UHGV virus genome: UHGV-0175639
Source of the DNA: a virus
DNA length: 64,000 nt
Direction: 5' to 3' (one strand)
Shown: positions 1,390 through 31,913 of the stretch, in pieces
Layout: each line of letters starts with the position of its first letter
Numbering within the stretch: position 1 is the first letter of the stretch
Translations under genes and position numbers: made by a program
Notes under the pieces: generated by a model
Seen by the model: only the letters and a program-made list of their open reading frames with translations
Databases searched by the model: none
What the model was told of the DNA's origin: nothing

Positions 1390-1779
1390 CTACATCACGG
1401 GACAATCATCAAACTCGCCACTTCTTGCGTCGTTGATAATGTGAGTGATCACACCAAACACGGCATTGCTGCCCGTGCATCCATCGTCATCCTTTGGCAA
1501 TGCTTCCTTCTTACCGGTTCTTAAATCCTCCAGATGCTGACGTGGATACTTCCGGTATCTTTTTACGCGATATTCCCCATCCAGAGCGCATACAAGCAGA
1601 GAACCATCAACCGGGGTAAGTGAGGAATCGACCACCAGCAATGCACCCTGTAATATTCCCTCACGATGATGACTATCAGCTGCCCTCATGAAGTAGGTCG
1701 CTGAAGGATGTCTAATTATCTGCTGATCAAGAGAAATACGGCTCTCAGCATAATCCGCCGCAGGAGAAGGGAAGCCCAT
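1390..1779 (-). CDS. UmuD-prime-like S24 peptidase-fold protein (HumD-like; lacks the UmuD N-terminal arm)
   Basis: Starts MGFPSPAADY, matching UmuD just after its self-cleavage site; Ser and Lys of the catalytic dyad context present. Confidence 0.75.
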   Translation of the reverse strand: MGFPSPAADYAESRISLDQQIIRHPSATYFMRAADSHHREGILQGALLVVDSSLTPVDGSLLVCALDGEYRVKRYRKYPRQHLEDLRTGKKEALPKDDDGCTGSNAVFGVITHIINDARSGEFDDCPVM

Positions 1780-3997: not shown

Positions 3998-4810
3998 CTA
4001 GACACTTCCGAGCCGTTGATAATACTGGTTTTCATATTCTGTCGGTGACATCTGTTCGCTAGAACCATGCCGACGCTTACTGTTATAAAACATTTCGATG
4101 TAATCAAAAATATCACTGCGGGCTTCTTCCCGCGTTCCGTAGATCTTTTTCTTTATCCGTTCACGTTTCAACAACTGGAAAAAACTTTCTGCAACCGCAT
4201 TATCATGGCAGTTACCGCGACGGCTCATGCTACCCTCCAGGCCGTGTGATTTCAGGAACGACTGCCACTCATGGCTTGTGTACTGACTGCCCTGATCCGA
4301 ATGAACCAGCACCTGTTTTTCGGGATTACGCCGCCATACAGCCATCAGCAGTGCGTTCAGGACAATGTCCTTTGTCATCCGGGATTGCATGGACCAGCCG
4401 ATAATTTTGCGTGAGAACAGATCAACAACAACGGCAAGATACAGCCAGCCTTCGTGGGTCCTGATGTAGGTTATGTCCGTTACCCAACGCTCATCAGGAG
4501 CATCCGGATTGAACTGTCGCTGGAGCCTGTTGGGTGACACGATACTGGCCTCGCCTTTACGTGCCCGCGGGCTTCGGTATCCGACCTGAGCCTTTATTCC
4601 GACACGTTTCATCAGTCTCCAGACTCTGTTTACTCCGCACTGTTGCCCGCTGTCACGCAAATCCAGATGGATTTTGCGATAACCATAGACGCATCCCGAT
4701 TCCAGCCAGAACTGTTTAATCTGTCCTGTCAGTCTCAGGTCTGCCTGATGGCGTTGTGAATGCGGCTGCTGAAGCCAGGCGTAAAAACCACTGGGATGAA
4801 CATCCAGCAC
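3998..4810 (-). CDS. IS3-family transposase OrfB (DDE integrase core)
   Basis: 270 aa; WVTDITYIRT...VHSDQGSQYTS...CHDNAVAESFF signature of IS3 OrfB. Confidence 0.85.
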   Translation of the reverse strand: MLDVHPSGFYAWLQQPHSQRHQADLRLTGQIKQFWLESGCVYGYRKIHLDLRDSGQQCGVNRVWRLMKRVGIKAQVGYRSPRARKGEASIVSPNRLQRQFNPDAPDERWVTDITYIRTHEGWLYLAVVVDLFSRKIIGWSMQSRMTKDIVLNALLMAVWRRNPEKQVLVHSDQGSQYTSHEWQSFLKSHGLEGSMSRRGNCHDNAVAESFFQLLKRERIKKKIYGTREEARSDIFDYIEMFYNSKRRHGSSEQMSPTEYENQYYQRLGSV

Positions 4811-4866
4811 CCGACAGAGCAGGCGAACAGGCCAGCAACAGGAGTTGTCACGGATAAAGGCGTACC

Positions 4867-5151
4867 TCAGTCGGACAGCTTTGCGAAGTACGCCGCGGCT
4901 TTTTTTAATATGTCCCGTTCGTCGGTAACCCGTTTCAGCTCTTTCTGGAGACGGCGGATCTCGGCCTGAGCATCTGACTGTTCTTTATTAGTGGAAGAAT
5001 CCGGACCGTACTTCTTTATCCAGGCATAAAGGCTGTGGGTGGTGATATCGAGACGTGTTGCAACGCTGGCAACAGAATAACCGCGATCAACAACCTGTTT
5101 GACTGCTTCAGTTTTAAACTCTTCGGGATAACGCTTACCGCTCATGGGCAC
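4867..5151 (-). CDS. IS3-family transposase OrfA (HTH, leucine-zipper region)
   Basis: 94 aa; EEFKTEAVKQV...HSLYAWIKKY pattern typical of IS3 OrfA. Confidence 0.85.
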   Translation of the reverse strand: MPMSGKRYPEEFKTEAVKQVVDRGYSVASVATRLDITTHSLYAWIKKYGPDSSTNKEQSDAQAEIRRLQKELKRVTDERDILKKAAAYFAKLSD

Positions 5152-5468
5152 CTCTCTTTAAGCCATCTTAAATGACACTGAGGTGTCTGTTAAACCCGTG
5201 GCGATTCAAACGCCGATCTCACACATAACCAGTAAAGGAAAACTAGTTCTCCAATTTAGCTCGCCAATTACAGGCATTCGCTCACTACAGCTTATCCAAC
5301 CATCCTTAGATGCGGCTGTATTGGCATAGGCCTTACGGTGCTTCTGTAGCTCTGCTGCAATCGCTCTCACGACTTCAACTGGTGCCCTTGCAGCAAACTC
5401 AATGTTGGTGATCAGCTCATTAAGATATTTCTCGCTTGGGTAGCATTTCTTATTGTTAACGGTGGTCA

Positions 5469-5654
5469 TTAGGCAGCTCTCTCAACAACAAGCAATTCGT
5501 CGTAGTCATAATCAGTTTCGGAACCATCCGTACCGAACAGAGTCACTTTGTCATTTTCCATCCAAAAAGATTTAACCGCACATTGTTGACCTTTAGATGT
5601 TATGAGCACATCACCAGGGATTACGTCTTCAGCGCGAACCTCTAGTGTTCTCAT
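5469..5654 (-). CDS. hypothetical protein, 61 aa
   Basis: Small ORF coupled to neighbours. Confidence 0.35.
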   Translation of the reverse strand: MRTLEVRAEDVIPGDVLITSKGQQCAVKSFWMENDKVTLFGTDGSETDYDYDELLVVERAA

Positions 5655-6181
5655 CGTGCTGCCCCCTCTTTGGTGAAAATGCCTGCTGCAATGCTGTTTA
5701 TGATGCTGTCAGTGCATGGAGTAGAAAGCTGGGCATCTCCAGCAATTTTCATGACCTCAACATCCGCATATCGAATACCGAGGTGTATCAGACCGGCTAT
5801 ACCTGACTTAAGTCGAACATTTTCCATAAACAGATCTTTTTCCCGCTGTTTAGCGGCTTCCAACTCCATCGACAATTTTTCCAACTGCTCTTTATGCTTC
5901 TTGTATTCCTGATACGCGTGCCAAGACTGACCTTTGCGCACACTATCAGTGATATCAGCAACCTGCTCTGGTGTTAGCGTGGTCAGTGGCTGTGCTGGAA
6001 AAATCATCACTTGCCCGGCATCCCAATCAAAACCCGCCTGAATTGACTGAACCTCAACTGATGGTGTTGAACCGATGCGACCAGGCGAATGAACAACGAT
6101 CGTTACATCCATATCGCGACGATGGCTGTGGTTGTTGGACAAAATACGATTCACCAACTCAGAAAATTTGGAAAATTTCAT
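5651..6181 (-). CDS. hypothetical protein, about 176 aa (start moved to MKFSKFSE)
   Basis: ATGA overlap with the upstream gene stop at 6178-6181; the longer N-terminal extension in the ORF track lies inside the upstream gene. Confidence 0.45.
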
Positions 6182-6501
6182 GCTGATCCCTCTTTCTCTC
6201 CCCGGATAATTCTGTTGCACACATCCACACACTCGTCGCAGATGAAAACGGCGTCCCCAGCAATTAACTTTTTGACGGCGTACTGGGATTTGTTGCAGAA
6301 GCTGCAACAAAGTGTTCGCCTGACTGATAAGGATGGAGCGCCAGATGTCAGCCGCTCCATATCGTTCTTGCGACGCAATATCACACGGCTGAACTCAACC
6401 AGTTTCTCCGGGGATATATCCTCCTCCGTAGCGAGCGTCTCTAGTCGTTCGAGTATGTTGAAGGCTTTTTCTTGGGTAATAGCAGAGTGCGATGTGGTCA
6501 T
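6178..6501 (-). CDS. ClpX-type C4 zinc-finger domain protein
   Basis: C-terminus [35 protein letters not shown] closely matches the ClpX N-terminal zinc-binding domain; no AAA+ module. Confidence 0.6.
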
Positions 6502-6965
6502 TTTCTTTCACCTTCAATGTTCGTGGCGCTGGCAAGATTGTCCTTGCGAAGAAGAGCGGCTATGCGCTTACTTCCATCCGAGATAACGCCCTCGTAATAC
6601 TCACGCTGCTCGTTGAGTTTTGATTTTGCCAACTCCAGTTGTTTTGTTAGTTCCGCAATACGGCAAACATCGTTGATACGCGTTTCCTCTAATGCGTTGA
6701 TCTCATCCAGTAGTGCCAGCACGGTAGCTGGACTGGCTGCGGCGATGAATTCAGCATTGGCCTGCTGTTCCATCTGGAAATCTTCATCGAAACCGCTTTC
6801 AGGATGCGCTCCTTCAATTCTGCAAATAGGAATATATCCAGCAACTTCACGATGAATTAGCGCATCATCACCATCTAATCGGCTCTCTCCATATTCGAGC
6901 GACCACTCACCACACGTTGCTTTCTCTGCCTTTTCACGCAGTGCCTGATAGTCAATCTTGCTCAC
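6498..6965 (-). CDS. Ead/Ea22-like prophage protein
   Basis: N-terminus [21 protein letters not shown] typical of Ea22-like proteins, from memory. Confidence 0.55.
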
Positions 6966-7462
6966 TGGATGACTCCTTTACGAAGCTGTTCAGCAATACT
7001 TACGCATATCTCTGCGCCTCTAATCAGCCCCGGAACGTTCTTGTTTGGCCCAACTTCACCATCAACAAAATCAATCATCGCGTTACGAGCCATATCCACG
7101 CCCTGCGCACGTACTTCAGCCAGAAAAGTATCGGTGGCTGGAGTCTCCGTTAATTCGCTAACCCAATTATCTCCGTGTTCCTCGGCACACATCGCATCGA
7201 ATGCTCGCTCAGATTCTTTCAGGGCTGCATTCTCCGCCGCTAATGCGTCTCTTTGCGCCCGCAACTTCTCAATTTCGGCAGCCATGTAGTAACCAACCAT
7301 AGCGAAGACGGCAAAAGAGTTGTCTGCCTCATCAGGCGACACTGAGGCCATTAGCAGGCCATCGTAAAAATCGTGACTCCCATTGGTGATCGCCACCGCA
7401 TAGGAGTCGTGGTTCTCGCGCTTGTGAATGAGAACTACGGGATTTTCGATTTTGTTACTCAT
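6962..7462 (-). CDS. hypothetical protein, 166 aa
   Basis: ORF preceded by the conserved GGAAAAACAC-ATG leader. Confidence 0.5.
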   Translation of the reverse strand: MSNKIENPVVLIHKRENHDSYAVAITNGSHDFYDGLLMASVSPDEADNSFAVFAMVGYYMAAEIEKLRAQRDALAAENAALKESERAFDAMCAEEHGDNWVSELTETPATDTFLAEVRAQGVDMARNAMIDFVDGEVGPNKNVPGLIRGAEICVSIAEQLRKGVIQ

Positions 7463-8746: not shown

Positions 8747-10432
8747 TCATTTAACGCGTTTGAAAACGTATACGCTGACTGTGATCCCTGTGTCTTCAAA
8801 CTCGTTGGTAAACGACTTCCCTCTGGCATAAACGTAATTATCCATCGTCATCCAGTCCAGTATTGGCGCAGTGCCCGGCAATACTGCTACAAGACGCCCG
8901 CCGACTTTCAGATGCCCCAGCGCAGCCAGCGTGTGCTCTCTATGACGACCAAGCGAGTACGGCGGGTTCATAACGATTTTGTCGAACTGATAACCTGCGT
9001 TGTCCTCAGACCACTTTATGAAGTCGCAGCAAATCGTGTTCGTATACCCTTTTCCACGCAGGATATCAGCGAAGAGAGGTGCGATTTCTATGCAGGTAAC
9101 ATCTTCCAGATCGGCGTTTATATAGGCCAGAAGATCCCCACGTCCGGCTTGAGGCTCCAACAGCTTCTCACCAGGCTTCAATTCAGTGGCTCTTGCAACG
9201 TACTCAGCAATCAAGCGTGGGGTAGGGTAGAACTGGTGTGATTTTGTATCCGGTATTAAACCGGTAGCCACAATCGTATTTAGCGTATGGCCGATGTCAT
9301 ACGGGAACTGCCAGTGCTTTTTCTCCTGCACGCCGCCAATGAAGCTCAGTGTGCGCTCAAGCTCTTCCACCTGCGACTTCTGGAGAGCTGAATCAGAGAA
9401 GTACCATACGCCTTTGTCTTTGCTCAATCGCCCGTCACGAAGCGCAGTGCGAACCGGCACGGAGATCGTCTTCTGGATTAACCCGAACTGCTTTGGTGCC
9501 CGTGTTTTTGGCGCAGTTCGGCATGGCGCGGGGATTGCAGCAGGCATACTGTAAGCCAGCACCTCATTCAACTTCCAGGCCACGTCAGGATGTATTTCAA
9601 AGTGAACGTTGCCGTTCTTGAACATCTTCACGCGCATCAGATTTCCATCGACGTTCATCCAGTCACCGGTCTGGCAGTCGTTTGCCCGATACGCAGCTGA
9701 TAGCACCTCAGCAGTGCGGTTGATGGTAATAAATTCTTTGTGCGCGAAGAAATGAAGCAAGACACGCAGATCGTCGATGTAGTCCTCTTTGCGATAGTTC
9801 ACGCTAACGCTGTCCCGCCAGAAATCAGAAATGCAGTCAGCGATTATCAGACGCTCGCTGAAACCGTTTGTCTTATTTGTCTTGTGCGCAGGACTCAGCG
9901 CCTTAAACAAGCCATACACGCGCTCAGAGAGATATTTGTGCCTGTCATTCAGCAAATTAAGCATCGTGGGTATGACCGTTTCTGCTTTGAACTCCGGTAC
10001 ACCAACGAACTCTTTAACCTTCATCTGGTAGCCGGTTCTGTCAGTTTTGATGACTTCCTGTTTGCCCTCTATAAACTGCTCGCGCCACTCATCTCGACGG
10101 GAAGCTGGCATGATCAGCAAAACGTTAGTCATGTCCGTGACCTTCCTCCAGTACTCGGCCCAAATATTCTGTTTCACCCATTCCAGATCGACTTTATCCA
10201 ACCAACCTCGATTTAAACGCGAGCGATCTTCATCTGGTCGATGGTTTAGTCTCAGCAGGCGATTAATCATGTTGTGGCGTTCGTCGCCATAAACGAAGTC
10301 GTGTACCTGATACATGAAGGCGATCTCTTTCTCGCACTCGGCCACGATTTCGTGGATGACATTCATTTCCTGACGATAGTCGATAGCCGTGTTTGAGCTG
10401 GCATCGTCGATGATGGAAAGGGCTGTATTCAT
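8747..10432 (-). CDS. 561-aa protein with a C-terminal SAM-dependent N6-adenine methyltransferase-like domain
   Basis: C-terminal about 170 aa contain FYPTP, EPQAGRGDL and NPPYS motifs; N-terminal about 380 aa unassigned. Confidence 0.6.
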   Translation of the reverse strand: MNTALSIIDDASSNTAIDYRQEMNVIHEIVAECEKEIAFMYQVHDFVYGDERHNMINRLLRLNHRPDEDRSRLNRGWLDKVDLEWVKQNIWAEYWRKVTDMTNVLLIMPASRRDEWREQFIEGKQEVIKTDRTGYQMKVKEFVGVPEFKAETVIPTMLNLLNDRHKYLSERVYGLFKALSPAHKTNKTNGFSERLIIADCISDFWRDSVSVNYRKEDYIDDLRVLLHFFAHKEFITINRTAEVLSAAYRANDCQTGDWMNVDGNLMRVKMFKNGNVHFEIHPDVAWKLNEVLAYSMPAAIPAPCRTAPKTRAPKQFGLIQKTISVPVRTALRDGRLSKDKGVWYFSDSALQKSQVEELERTLSFIGGVQEKKHWQFPYDIGHTLNTIVATGLIPDTKSHQFYPTPRLIAEYVARATELKPGEKLLEPQAGRGDLLAYINADLEDVTCIEIAPLFADILRGKGYTNTICCDFIKWSEDNAGYQFDKIVMNPPYSLGRHREHTLAALGHLKVGGRLVAVLPGTAPILDWMTMDNYVYARGKSFTNEFEDTGITVSVYVFKRVK

Positions 10433-30697: not shown

Positions 30698-30798
30698 TAT
30701 GCTACCAGCGGTAATTGATAGTCTGTCAACGGTTCGCCGTATGCTGCCAACTGTTTTTGGTATGCTGCCAGCGGCAAATCAAGTATGCTGTCAGCGGT
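30698..30798. repeat. iteron array upstream of repA (four copies, consensus TATGCTNNCAGCGGT)
   Basis: Copies at 30698, 30740 (degenerate), 30761, 30784. Confidence 0.8.
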
Positions 30799-30817
30799 TG
30801 AATGACAAAGGTGTCCA

Positions 30818-31913
30818 CATGTCCACAAAAAATAAAAAAGGTAAAAATAACAAAGAAGTAGAAGATAATCTCGACAACTTTGAAGAAGGTTCCCTTGAAT
30901 TGTACACAGGGGAACTTGTCCCTAATAGCAACAATACAGTCCAACCAATTGCGTTGATGCGGCTGGGGTTGTTCGTGCCCACGCTCAAGGGGACAAAATA
31001 CAGCAAGCGTAATAAGCCAAATGAGATCGATGCTTCAAAGGAGCTTGTTCAGCTCGAAGTAGCCCGTTCTGAAGGTTATTCCGATATCAAGATAACCGGT
31101 CCTCGTCTCGACATGGATCATGATTTCAAAACGTGGGTGGGCGTTGTGCGTTCGCTGGCAGAATACGGCGAACCTAACGGTCGTGTCGAGTTAAGCATCA
31201 CGAAATTTGCGAAGTTTTGTGGCTATCCATCGTCACAGATCCGCAAAACACTCCGCGACCGGCTTACAAACAGTCTTTTGAAGATCATGCGTACAACTCT
31301 GTCTTTTCAGAGAACGTATGAAGAAAAGAATGTCGACGGCTCTAACAAGATCTCGCTTCTGATGGTGCACCTCATCAATAGCGTGGACTACAACGAGCAG
31401 AAAGATACGGTGGTGTTCTATGCAGAACCGAAGCTGGCCGAACTATATCGCTTTGACCATAAGGTTCTTTTGCAGTTAAAGGTTATCAATAAGCTACCAC
31501 GCAAAGAAACAGCACAGGCTCTGTACACCTTCATCGAAAGTCTTCCAACCAAGCCTGCGCCGGTATCGCTTGCTCGATTACGTGCGCGACTCAATTTGAG
31601 TAGCAGGAATGTCAGCTCGCAGAATCAGACTATACGTAACGGCTTAAAAGCTCTCCAAGATTTGGGCTATCTCGAATACAGCGAGATTAAGCGAGGGCGG
31701 TCGATCTATATCCAGATTCACAGCCGCAATCCAAAACTCAAAGTCGCACCGCCAAAACCTGAAGACATCGAACCCAAAAAACCAGATGAGAAAGCTGGGG
31801 AAATTGATGCCAAACAGAACATTATCAACAAGATAACCGAACTTTCGCAGAATTTGACGCCTGAAAATATCAAGATGATTGAGATCCTTTCCAATAGTCT
31901 CAAACTGCTTTGA
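30818..31913 (+). CDS. repA: RepA-like replication initiator (iteron-binding)
   Basis: 365 aa from MSTKNKKGK; flanked on both sides by iterons; start of the longer tracked ORF rejected because it overlaps the iterons. Confidence 0.7.

Follow-up and report, generated by a model that had tools for sequence, protein, structure and literature searches.

Under the control of ClpXP are sigma-S, SOS mutagenesis proteins, antitoxins, cell-division proteins and several replication proteins of phages and plasmids, and we know of no natural protein aimed at the docking step of its N-domain. Phage proteins that act on host proteases include PinA of T4 and gp4.5 of T7, which act on Lon, and CIII of lambda, which acts on FtsH. 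Like the protein described here, in the role that we propose for it, these are small early phage proteins that blunt an ATP-dependent protease of the host; to our knowledge, none of them is a copy of the protease's own domain, and none is known for ClpX.

The N-domain of ClpX is a dimeric docking platform for adaptors and for some substrates, and is dispensable for the degradation of ssrA substrates (PMC7226468, PMC7804408). Within this domain, F16 and I46 form a hydrophobic pocket that is common to lambda-O, trigger factor, SspB and RssB (PMC7804408). The isolated zinc-binding domain (ZBD), studied as His-ZBD, ClpX(1-52), forms a stable module, with a KD of 35-82 nM for XB peptides (PMC12373786), and free ZBD supplied in trans at 5-20 uM inhibits the breakdown of sigma-S by ClpXP that RssB mediates (PMC7226468). 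Mycobacterial ClpC2, a partial homologue of the ClpC1 N-domain, acts as a molecular sponge (PMC10030653), and is also a ligand-released, DNA-binding autorepressor (PMC13345244). In B. subtilis, CsfB (Gin) is a stand-alone dimeric treble-clef zinc domain with a structure like that of the ClpX N-domain, to which it has about 20% identity and with which it does not share a conserved surface (PMC5890618).

Here we analyse a gene at positions 6178-6501, on the minus strand, of a 64,000-nucleotide stretch of viral DNA (UHGV-0175639; hereafter the window). It belongs to an E. coli phage-plasmid of the SSU5/pECOH89 type, about 110 kb in size, and 101 plasmid records cover at least 80% of its first 25 kb at 98-99% identity. 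The presence of a ClpX zinc finger in the gene product is already recorded in public annotation (RefSeq), so the bare observation is not new; our literature search turned up no study, whether experimental or comparative, that deals with ClpX zinc fingers which stand alone or come from phages. What we add is the conserved two-domain architecture with its orphan N-terminal domain, a distribution in two clades over three kinds of E. coli temperate elements, and the early, replication-linked position of the gene.

A ClpX-type zinc-binding domain in a small phage-plasmid protein

The open reading frame (6178..6501, minus strand, ATG start, stop codon included) is a real gene, which encodes a conserved two-domain protein of 107 amino acids. 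Reading the minus strand directly, we found a Shine-Dalgarno-like AAGGTG at 6509..6514, 7 nt 5' of the ATG, together with an ATGA at 6178-6181 in which the stop codon overlaps the ATG of the next gene. At the other end, sequence and ORF coordinates place a second ATGA at 6498-6501, where the ATG overlaps the stop codon of the upstream Ead/Ea22-like gene. The gene has 100% DNA identity to that for WP_000213527.1, named 'ClpX C4-type zinc finger protein' in RefSeq, and its product matches the PHROG 6797 profile (E=4.1e-58, residues 1-106 against positions 1-106 of 107), which is labelled in PHROGs as of unknown function. Older records name the product 'carboxylate--amine ligase', a label that is evidently a misnomer where it is attached to P88 gp19 (YP_009113062) and D6 orf93 (YP_009914770).

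The preliminary description of this locus had matched the C-terminal 40 residues to the ZBD at the N-terminus of ClpX, and had called for an alignment to the ClpX N-terminus. This identification holds well. Residues 64-102 (6196..6312, minus strand) are a bona fide ClpX-type C4 ZBD of 39 residues, in which the four cysteines and the F16 pocket residue are intact. Pfam PF06689 (zf-C4_ClpX) matches residues 65-100 over profile positions 2-38 of 39 with 57.5 bits and E=1.2e-15, where the gathering cut-off is 27 bits, a match far above chance expectation; an ungapped alignment of residues 62-102 to the solved E. coli ClpX ZBD (2ds5/1ovx) gave E=1e-14. When set against L12-E50 of E. coli ClpX, 28 of the 39 residues are identical (72%). 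The zinc ligands form a CxxC-(18)-CxxC pattern in which C66 (6304-6306), C69 (6295-6297), C88 (6238-6240) and C91 (6229-6231; all on the minus strand) align to C14, C17, C36 and C39 of ClpX, and these four cysteines are invariant across all aligned family members. An AlphaFold model of the protein had a mean pLDDT of 72 over the whole chain and of 80-85 in the ZBD. In this model the domain is a treble-clef fold with a C-terminal helix, and it superimposes on 2DS8_B (Foldseek) at 0.6 A over 38 columns with a target TM-score of 0.88. Only the tail KEGSA and the stop codon follow (6178..6195, minus strand), the tail being short, non-conserved and different among family members.

The ClpX equivalogs TIGR00382 and NF003745 scored 39.7 and 41.9 bits against the protein, below their cut-offs of 370.75 and 359, in alignments that cover just 41-43 of its 107 residues. 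With scores of 40-42 bits against cut-offs of about 360, the protein therefore has no ATPase, in agreement with the earlier statement that it lacks an AAA+ module, and the chain ends 5 residues past the zinc-binding domain. No AAA+ module was found in the protein itself, its neighbours had no AAA+ match, and the next ORF had no Pfam match. A clpX pseudogene fragment was considered as a source of the gene and ruled out, because the ZBD sits C-terminally in a conserved two-domain ORF whose neighbours lack AAA+ matches.

The phage protein thus shares with the N-domain of E. coli ClpX (1OVX, 2DS5-2DS8, PF06689) its fold, its four cysteines and the F16 pocket residue, but differs from ClpX in lacking the AAA+ ATPase, the pore loops and the IGF loop, in carrying the ZBD at the C-terminus instead of the N-terminus, in its fusion to an unrelated helical hairpin, and in being encoded by phages and phage-plasmids. 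It also differs from CsfB in that the phage family is a true member of PF06689; this was the sole match in a Pfam scan of the protein, which did not assign it to CsfB/Gin.

An orphan helical hairpin precedes the ZBD

From the AlphaFold model, the family alignments and a profile search, the N-terminal part of the protein (residues 10-52; 6346..6474, minus strand) was delimited as a helical hairpin, with modelled helices at residues 10-26 and 31-52. Between it and the ZBD lies a flexible linker (residues 53-63; 6313..6345, minus strand), in which pLDDT is below 50 at residues 56-60, and which varies in length and sequence between clades, with indels of 2-5 residues in the alignment. In the family alignment, the first 60 residues are conserved to the same degree as the ZBD. 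The hairpin carries a set of invariant charged residues (E11, K12, E18, R19, E21, E26, E27, R44 and D47), and the N-domain has a net charge of about -2. Judged from the alignment, these invariant charges suggest a specific binding surface over a mere scaffold.

When 1.84 billion representative proteins were searched with a profile of this N-domain, it was seen only before a ZBD or in truncated copies, the matches including relatives at 39-46% identity. By sequence, the N-domain had no match in Pfam or the PDB, and a scan of species-representative genomes for it returned nothing. The idea that the domain is common to the Ead/Ea22-like neighbours or to other proteins was rejected, since the profile search gave it only together with a ZBD, the remaining matches being low-complexity or repeat translations. 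Three of the weak matches (P0122, P0128 and P0129) are proteins made up of many 'FSILKRIEASAT' repeats, and look like translated DNA repeat arrays, not N-domain relatives. In some family members (P0005, P0007, P0012 and P0021) the N-terminus is called 12 residues longer, with MKSEGLTPAQLAERNAELPR in place of MTTSHSA, which suggests either that recombination has joined them to the upstream Ea22-like gene or that a different start was called.

This architecture invites comparison with mycobacterial ClpC2, which likewise holds a stand-alone copy of an unfoldase's substrate- and adaptor-docking domain at its C-terminus, in its case after a small domain for oligomerisation; both proteins have a C-terminal homologue of a Clp-unfoldase N-domain. 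There is no sequence relationship between the two, and ClpC2 differs in having the ClpC N-domain repeat fold, in its ligands, phosphoarginine and cyclomarin, and in being chromosomal. Since ClpC2 combines an N-terminal dimerisation and DNA-binding part with its unfoldase N-domain homologue (PMC10030653, PMC13345244), the phage ZBD might by the same design sense the level of a ClpX-N-domain ligand and couple host proteolysis to phage gene expression, with the hairpin giving ligand-dependent oligomerisation and binding to DNA or to another effector. We consider such a sensor or regulator very unlikely, given that the two-helix hairpin, with its net charge of about -2, has no HTH or RHH signature and no Pfam or PDB match.

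Two clades in three kinds of temperate element

A 90%-cluster search returned 26 full-length relatives, all from Escherichia, Salmonella or Shigella, beyond which the E-value jumps to ZBD-only matches, namely ClpX fragments and other short ZBD proteins. Scanning IMG/VR with the N-domain gave 72 viral loci, and the IMG/VR matches combined with the loci fetched before make up 74 loci with 40 distinct proteins. All 40 consist of hairpin, linker and ZBD, except for two frameshifted fusions and one protein cut by a contig end, and the two-domain architecture is present in 38 of 38 intact distinct proteins (74 loci). In the two fusions (L015 6001-6849 and L032, from IMG/VR), a frameshift just past CDEC runs the ZBD ORF into that of the 176-aa protein downstream, at the cost of the C-terminal helix of the ZBD, through either a sequencing error or an inactivated allele.

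The family divides into two clades. Clade 1, to which the window protein belongs, was found in 108 of 5426 complete E. coli genomes (about 2%), with 103 of its 109 places on plasmids; its carriers are SSU5/pECOH89-like phage-plasmids, the P1-like phage D6, whose orf93 has the same two domains, and some P2-like prophages. Clade 2 is represented by gp19 of the P2-like phage P88, which is about 50% identical to the window protein, and was found, almost always in the chromosome, in 112 of the 5426 genomes (about 2%). Taken together, about 4% of the complete E. coli genomes carry a member of the family. Within a collection of 50,697 phage records, full-length relatives were found in 8, and none in SSU5, P1 or P2 themselves.

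Across the family and ClpX together, the invariant positions of the ZBD are the four cysteines, S15, F16, K19, G30, I35, E38 and V40 (ClpX numbering). At the position of the pocket residue I46, 17 of 18 sequences have a hydrophobic residue (I/V/L/A/F), and at that of L42, in the ZBD helix, the family has V/A/D/I/L. Identity of the ZBD to ClpX ranges from 49 to 82% across the family, and reaches 82% in clade 2. Both domains are under purifying selection across the deep clade split: dN/dS ratios, which are noisy because the sequences are short, are 0.16-0.28 for both domains across this split, 0.26-0.40 for the N-domain in most pairs inside clade 1, and 0.7-0.9 for the ZBD in several near pairs inside clade 1. 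In addition, in one clade 1 sub-branch the beta-hairpin KKLIAG is changed to KLIITG or RLMLTG, and Y34 to C. Since surface positions of the ZBD have changed in clade 1 and the beta-hairpin is altered, the ligand specificity of these proteins may differ from that of ClpX.

These data bear on whether the gene could be a decaying, functionless remnant of a captured clpX 5' end. Over the 39 residues compared, metagenomic ZBDs are as similar as the ZBD of host ClpX, and these residues give no preference to an origin by capture of host clpX. Decay would be in line with the two viral contigs in which a frameshift fuses the ZBD ORF to the next ORF, and with the dispensability of the gene, as SSU5, P1 and P2 lack a full-length match in the phage collection. 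However, 38 distinct variants have an undamaged ORF, dN/dS between the clades stays under 0.3, the gene has a good Shine-Dalgarno sequence and translational coupling, and its frequency is about 4% among complete E. coli genomes, all of which makes a functionless remnant hardly credible.

The pattern of conservation in the ZBD is also relevant to the possibility that the phage and host ClpX ZBDs form heterodimers, the phage protein acting as a piggy-back or poison subunit that either breaks the trimer-of-dimers of N-domains or uses the hairpin as a new substrate receptor that redirects ClpXP. This seems to us quite improbable: ClpX N-domains dimerise inside one hexamer, at very high local concentration, their dimer was reportedly found to be very stable by Wojtyra and colleagues in 2003, and the helix position L42 varies (V/A/D/I/L) in the family. 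What speaks for heterodimerisation is that the ZBD is a dimerisation module (cross-linking in PMC7226468; interface in PMC5890618), that phage ZBDs are 72% (window) to 82% (clade 2) identical to the host ZBD, C-terminal helix included, and that the conserved N-terminal domain would gain an obvious role as a cargo binder.

An early, replication-linked gene position

In the window, the ZBD gene is part of a run of six small genes with overlapping starts and stops (5206..7462, minus strand), as defined from ORF coordinates, Pfam and PHROG. The order of their products is a 166-aa protein, an Ead/Ea22-like protein of 155 aa, the ZBD protein, a 176-aa protein, a 61-aa protein and a truncated DUF551 protein. 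The run is flanked on its gene-start side by a DUF4942/methyltransferase gene and on the other by an IS-interrupted DUF551, and no convincing internal promoter or terminator was found on its minus strand. The ZBD gene lies downstream of nrdAB, thyA, exonuclease and methylase genes of the phage-plasmid, and the replication and nucleotide genes nearby are those for a Rep3-type initiator, Pol III alpha, a DnaB-like helicase, RecA, nrdAB and thyA. The 166-aa, 155-aa (Ead/Ea22-like) and 176-aa proteins at 5651-7462 (minus strand) all match PHROG 368 and have common coiled-coil segments, and the ZBD gene is embedded within this array of mosaic Ea22-like paralogues.

In P2-like elements, the gene order is gpA, parM, parR/stbB, sometimes a 66-aa ORF, the ZBD gene, variable cargo and the portal gene. 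Across the loci, the largest ORF just upstream of the ZBD gene is parM in 38 and stbB in 10 more. P88-type prophages have a plasmid-type parM-parR (StbA/StbB) cassette directly after gpA (4662-6333 in P88), and the succession of parM-parR and then the ZBD gene was seen in L002-L008, L012, L045-L083 and L086; a plasmid-type partition cassette is odd in integrated P2-like phages. On the downstream side, the genes fall into at least five unrelated clusters across loci, and the 176-aa neighbour in the window is unrelated to the 169-aa neighbour in the P2-like elements. A fixed partner gene was looked for and rejected, as Ead/Ea22-like neighbours are common, yet absent in L010. The feature common to all contexts of the ZBD gene is an early, replication-linked position in a temperate element.

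Another reading is that the similarity to ClpX reflects ancestry only, with the treble-clef dimer binding an unrelated host or phage protein, such as a sigma factor, as with CsfB, or a replication or partition protein. We regard this as unlikely, although the linkage to parM-parR is constant in P2-like phages and ZBD surface positions vary within clade 1, both of which would suit a partner other than ClpX. A precedent exists in B. subtilis CsfB, a ClpX-NTD-like zinc dimer that is an anti-sigma factor (PMC5890618). Counting against this ClpX-independent reading are the identity to ClpX, 49-82% in the family (72% in the window) versus about 20% for CsfB, the presence of the F16 pocket residue, and the lack of parMR linkage in the phage-plasmid and in D6. 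We also considered the gene as part of a defence system, and rejected this, since the PADLOC-DB 2.0 defence models gave no match for the ZBD protein or for the five flanking small proteins.

A candidate soluble mimic of the ClpX docking domain

The simplest reading of the protein is that it acts as a competitive sponge or degron mask for ligands of the ClpX N-domain, because the ZBD is 72% identical to that of ClpX in the window and up to 82% in clade 2, the gene lies in an early operon, and free ZBD has the published behaviour described above. On the comparisons made here, we think this quite possible, if short of probable. The protein would mimic, in soluble form, the N-terminal docking domain of ClpX, the host unfoldase, and would fold as a zinc-bound dimer, as the isolated ZBD of E. 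coli does. If an early or replication-associated operon supplied it in excess, it could bind the XB-type tails of the adaptors SspB, RssB and UmuD, as well as N-domain-dependent substrates such as lambda-O-type initiators and MuA-type proteins. Recognition by ClpX or ClpXP that depends on the N-domain would then be blocked selectively, while basal ssrA-type degradation would be spared, and the outcome would be the stabilisation of element or host proteins. The N-terminal hairpin would most likely add a second specific contact, either by oligomerisation for avidity or by targeting a partner.

The preliminary description had proposed that the protein could titrate adaptors or compete with host ClpX, so as to protect element proteins or redirect proteolysis, and the published in-vitro behaviour of the isolated E. 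coli ZBD is compatible with such a function. Support for a decoy comes from the domain identity, the intact ligands, the invariant F16 and mostly hydrophobic I46 position, the purifying selection on both domains, the constancy of the two-domain architecture, the early replication-linked gene runs, the lack of a defence match and the precedent of ClpC2 as a sponge. Running counter to it, a bare decoy needs no strongly conserved N-terminal domain, so that a pure 'free ZBD' fails to explain this part of the protein, and ZBD surface positions evolve fast within clade 1.

Speculatively, the proteins that would benefit include the Rep3-type initiator (30699-31913) and HumD (1390-1779, minus strand), a 129-aa UmuD'-like protein of S24-peptidase fold, named 'HumD family translesion DNA polymerase' in RefSeq, whose gene is on the same strand as the ZBD gene and 4.4 kb downstream of it. 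HumD is a candidate because host UmuD/UmuD' is a ClpX-N-domain-dependent ClpXP substrate; according to work that Neher and colleagues are said to have published in 2003, host UmuD tethers UmuD' to the ClpX N-domain. TrfA is reportedly activated by ClpX, a result attributed to Konieczny and Helinski in 1997. Phage D6 has both HumD (L009 13676-14065) and the ZBD gene, and the P2-like carriers of the ZBD gene lack HumD.

Tentatively, we suggest that the family may be a dedicated ClpX N-domain mimic, and as such the first protein in nature to inhibit or re-programme the choice of substrates by ClpX. It might sponge up RssB, SspB or UmuD, or cover the N-domain degrons of replication, antitoxin or HumD-type proteins that the element itself encodes, with the hairpin contributing avidity or a second target, in carriers that include CTX-M-15-bearing pECOH89-type plasmids and P88-like prophages. 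If this is true, resident prophages or phage-plasmids would tune regulated proteolysis in about 4% of E. coli strains, the protein would be a ready-made genetic tool that switches off only the adaptor-dependent degradation by ClpXP, and it could matter for how stable phage-plasmids with resistance genes are; if not, the gene encodes a correctly annotated domain protein.

Other features of the phage-plasmid region

A two-ORF insertion sequence lies at 3998-5151 on the minus strand, with orfA (94 aa) at 4867-5151 and orfB (270 aa) at 3998-4810, the latter carrying a DDE-type motif, 'HSDQGSQYTS'; the element was assigned by eye to the IS3 family. It occupies the site of the DUF551 gene in related plasmids, and the ORF at 5206-5469 looks like a truncated DUF551 remnant. 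In pECOH89-type plasmids, ISEcp1-blaCTX-M-15 is found at the site of the insertion sequence in the window.

At 8747-10432, on the minus strand, a gene encodes a protein of 561 aa that begins with DUF4942 and has a methyltransferase region in its C-terminal part. The PADLOC matches of this methyltransferase region are to mad2 of the MADS system (E=1e-15) and to type II and orphan methyltransferases, and the protein is probably a methylase that serves the phage-plasmid for anti-restriction or self-protection. Finally, host-like housekeeping genes are present, with apbC at 252-1352 on the plus strand and the methionyl-tRNA synthetase gene metG just outside the window in L001 and L085, and the phage-plasmid also has nrdAB, thyA, a dfrA-like DHFR gene, and genes for Pol III alpha, RecA and CobT/CobS-like proteins.
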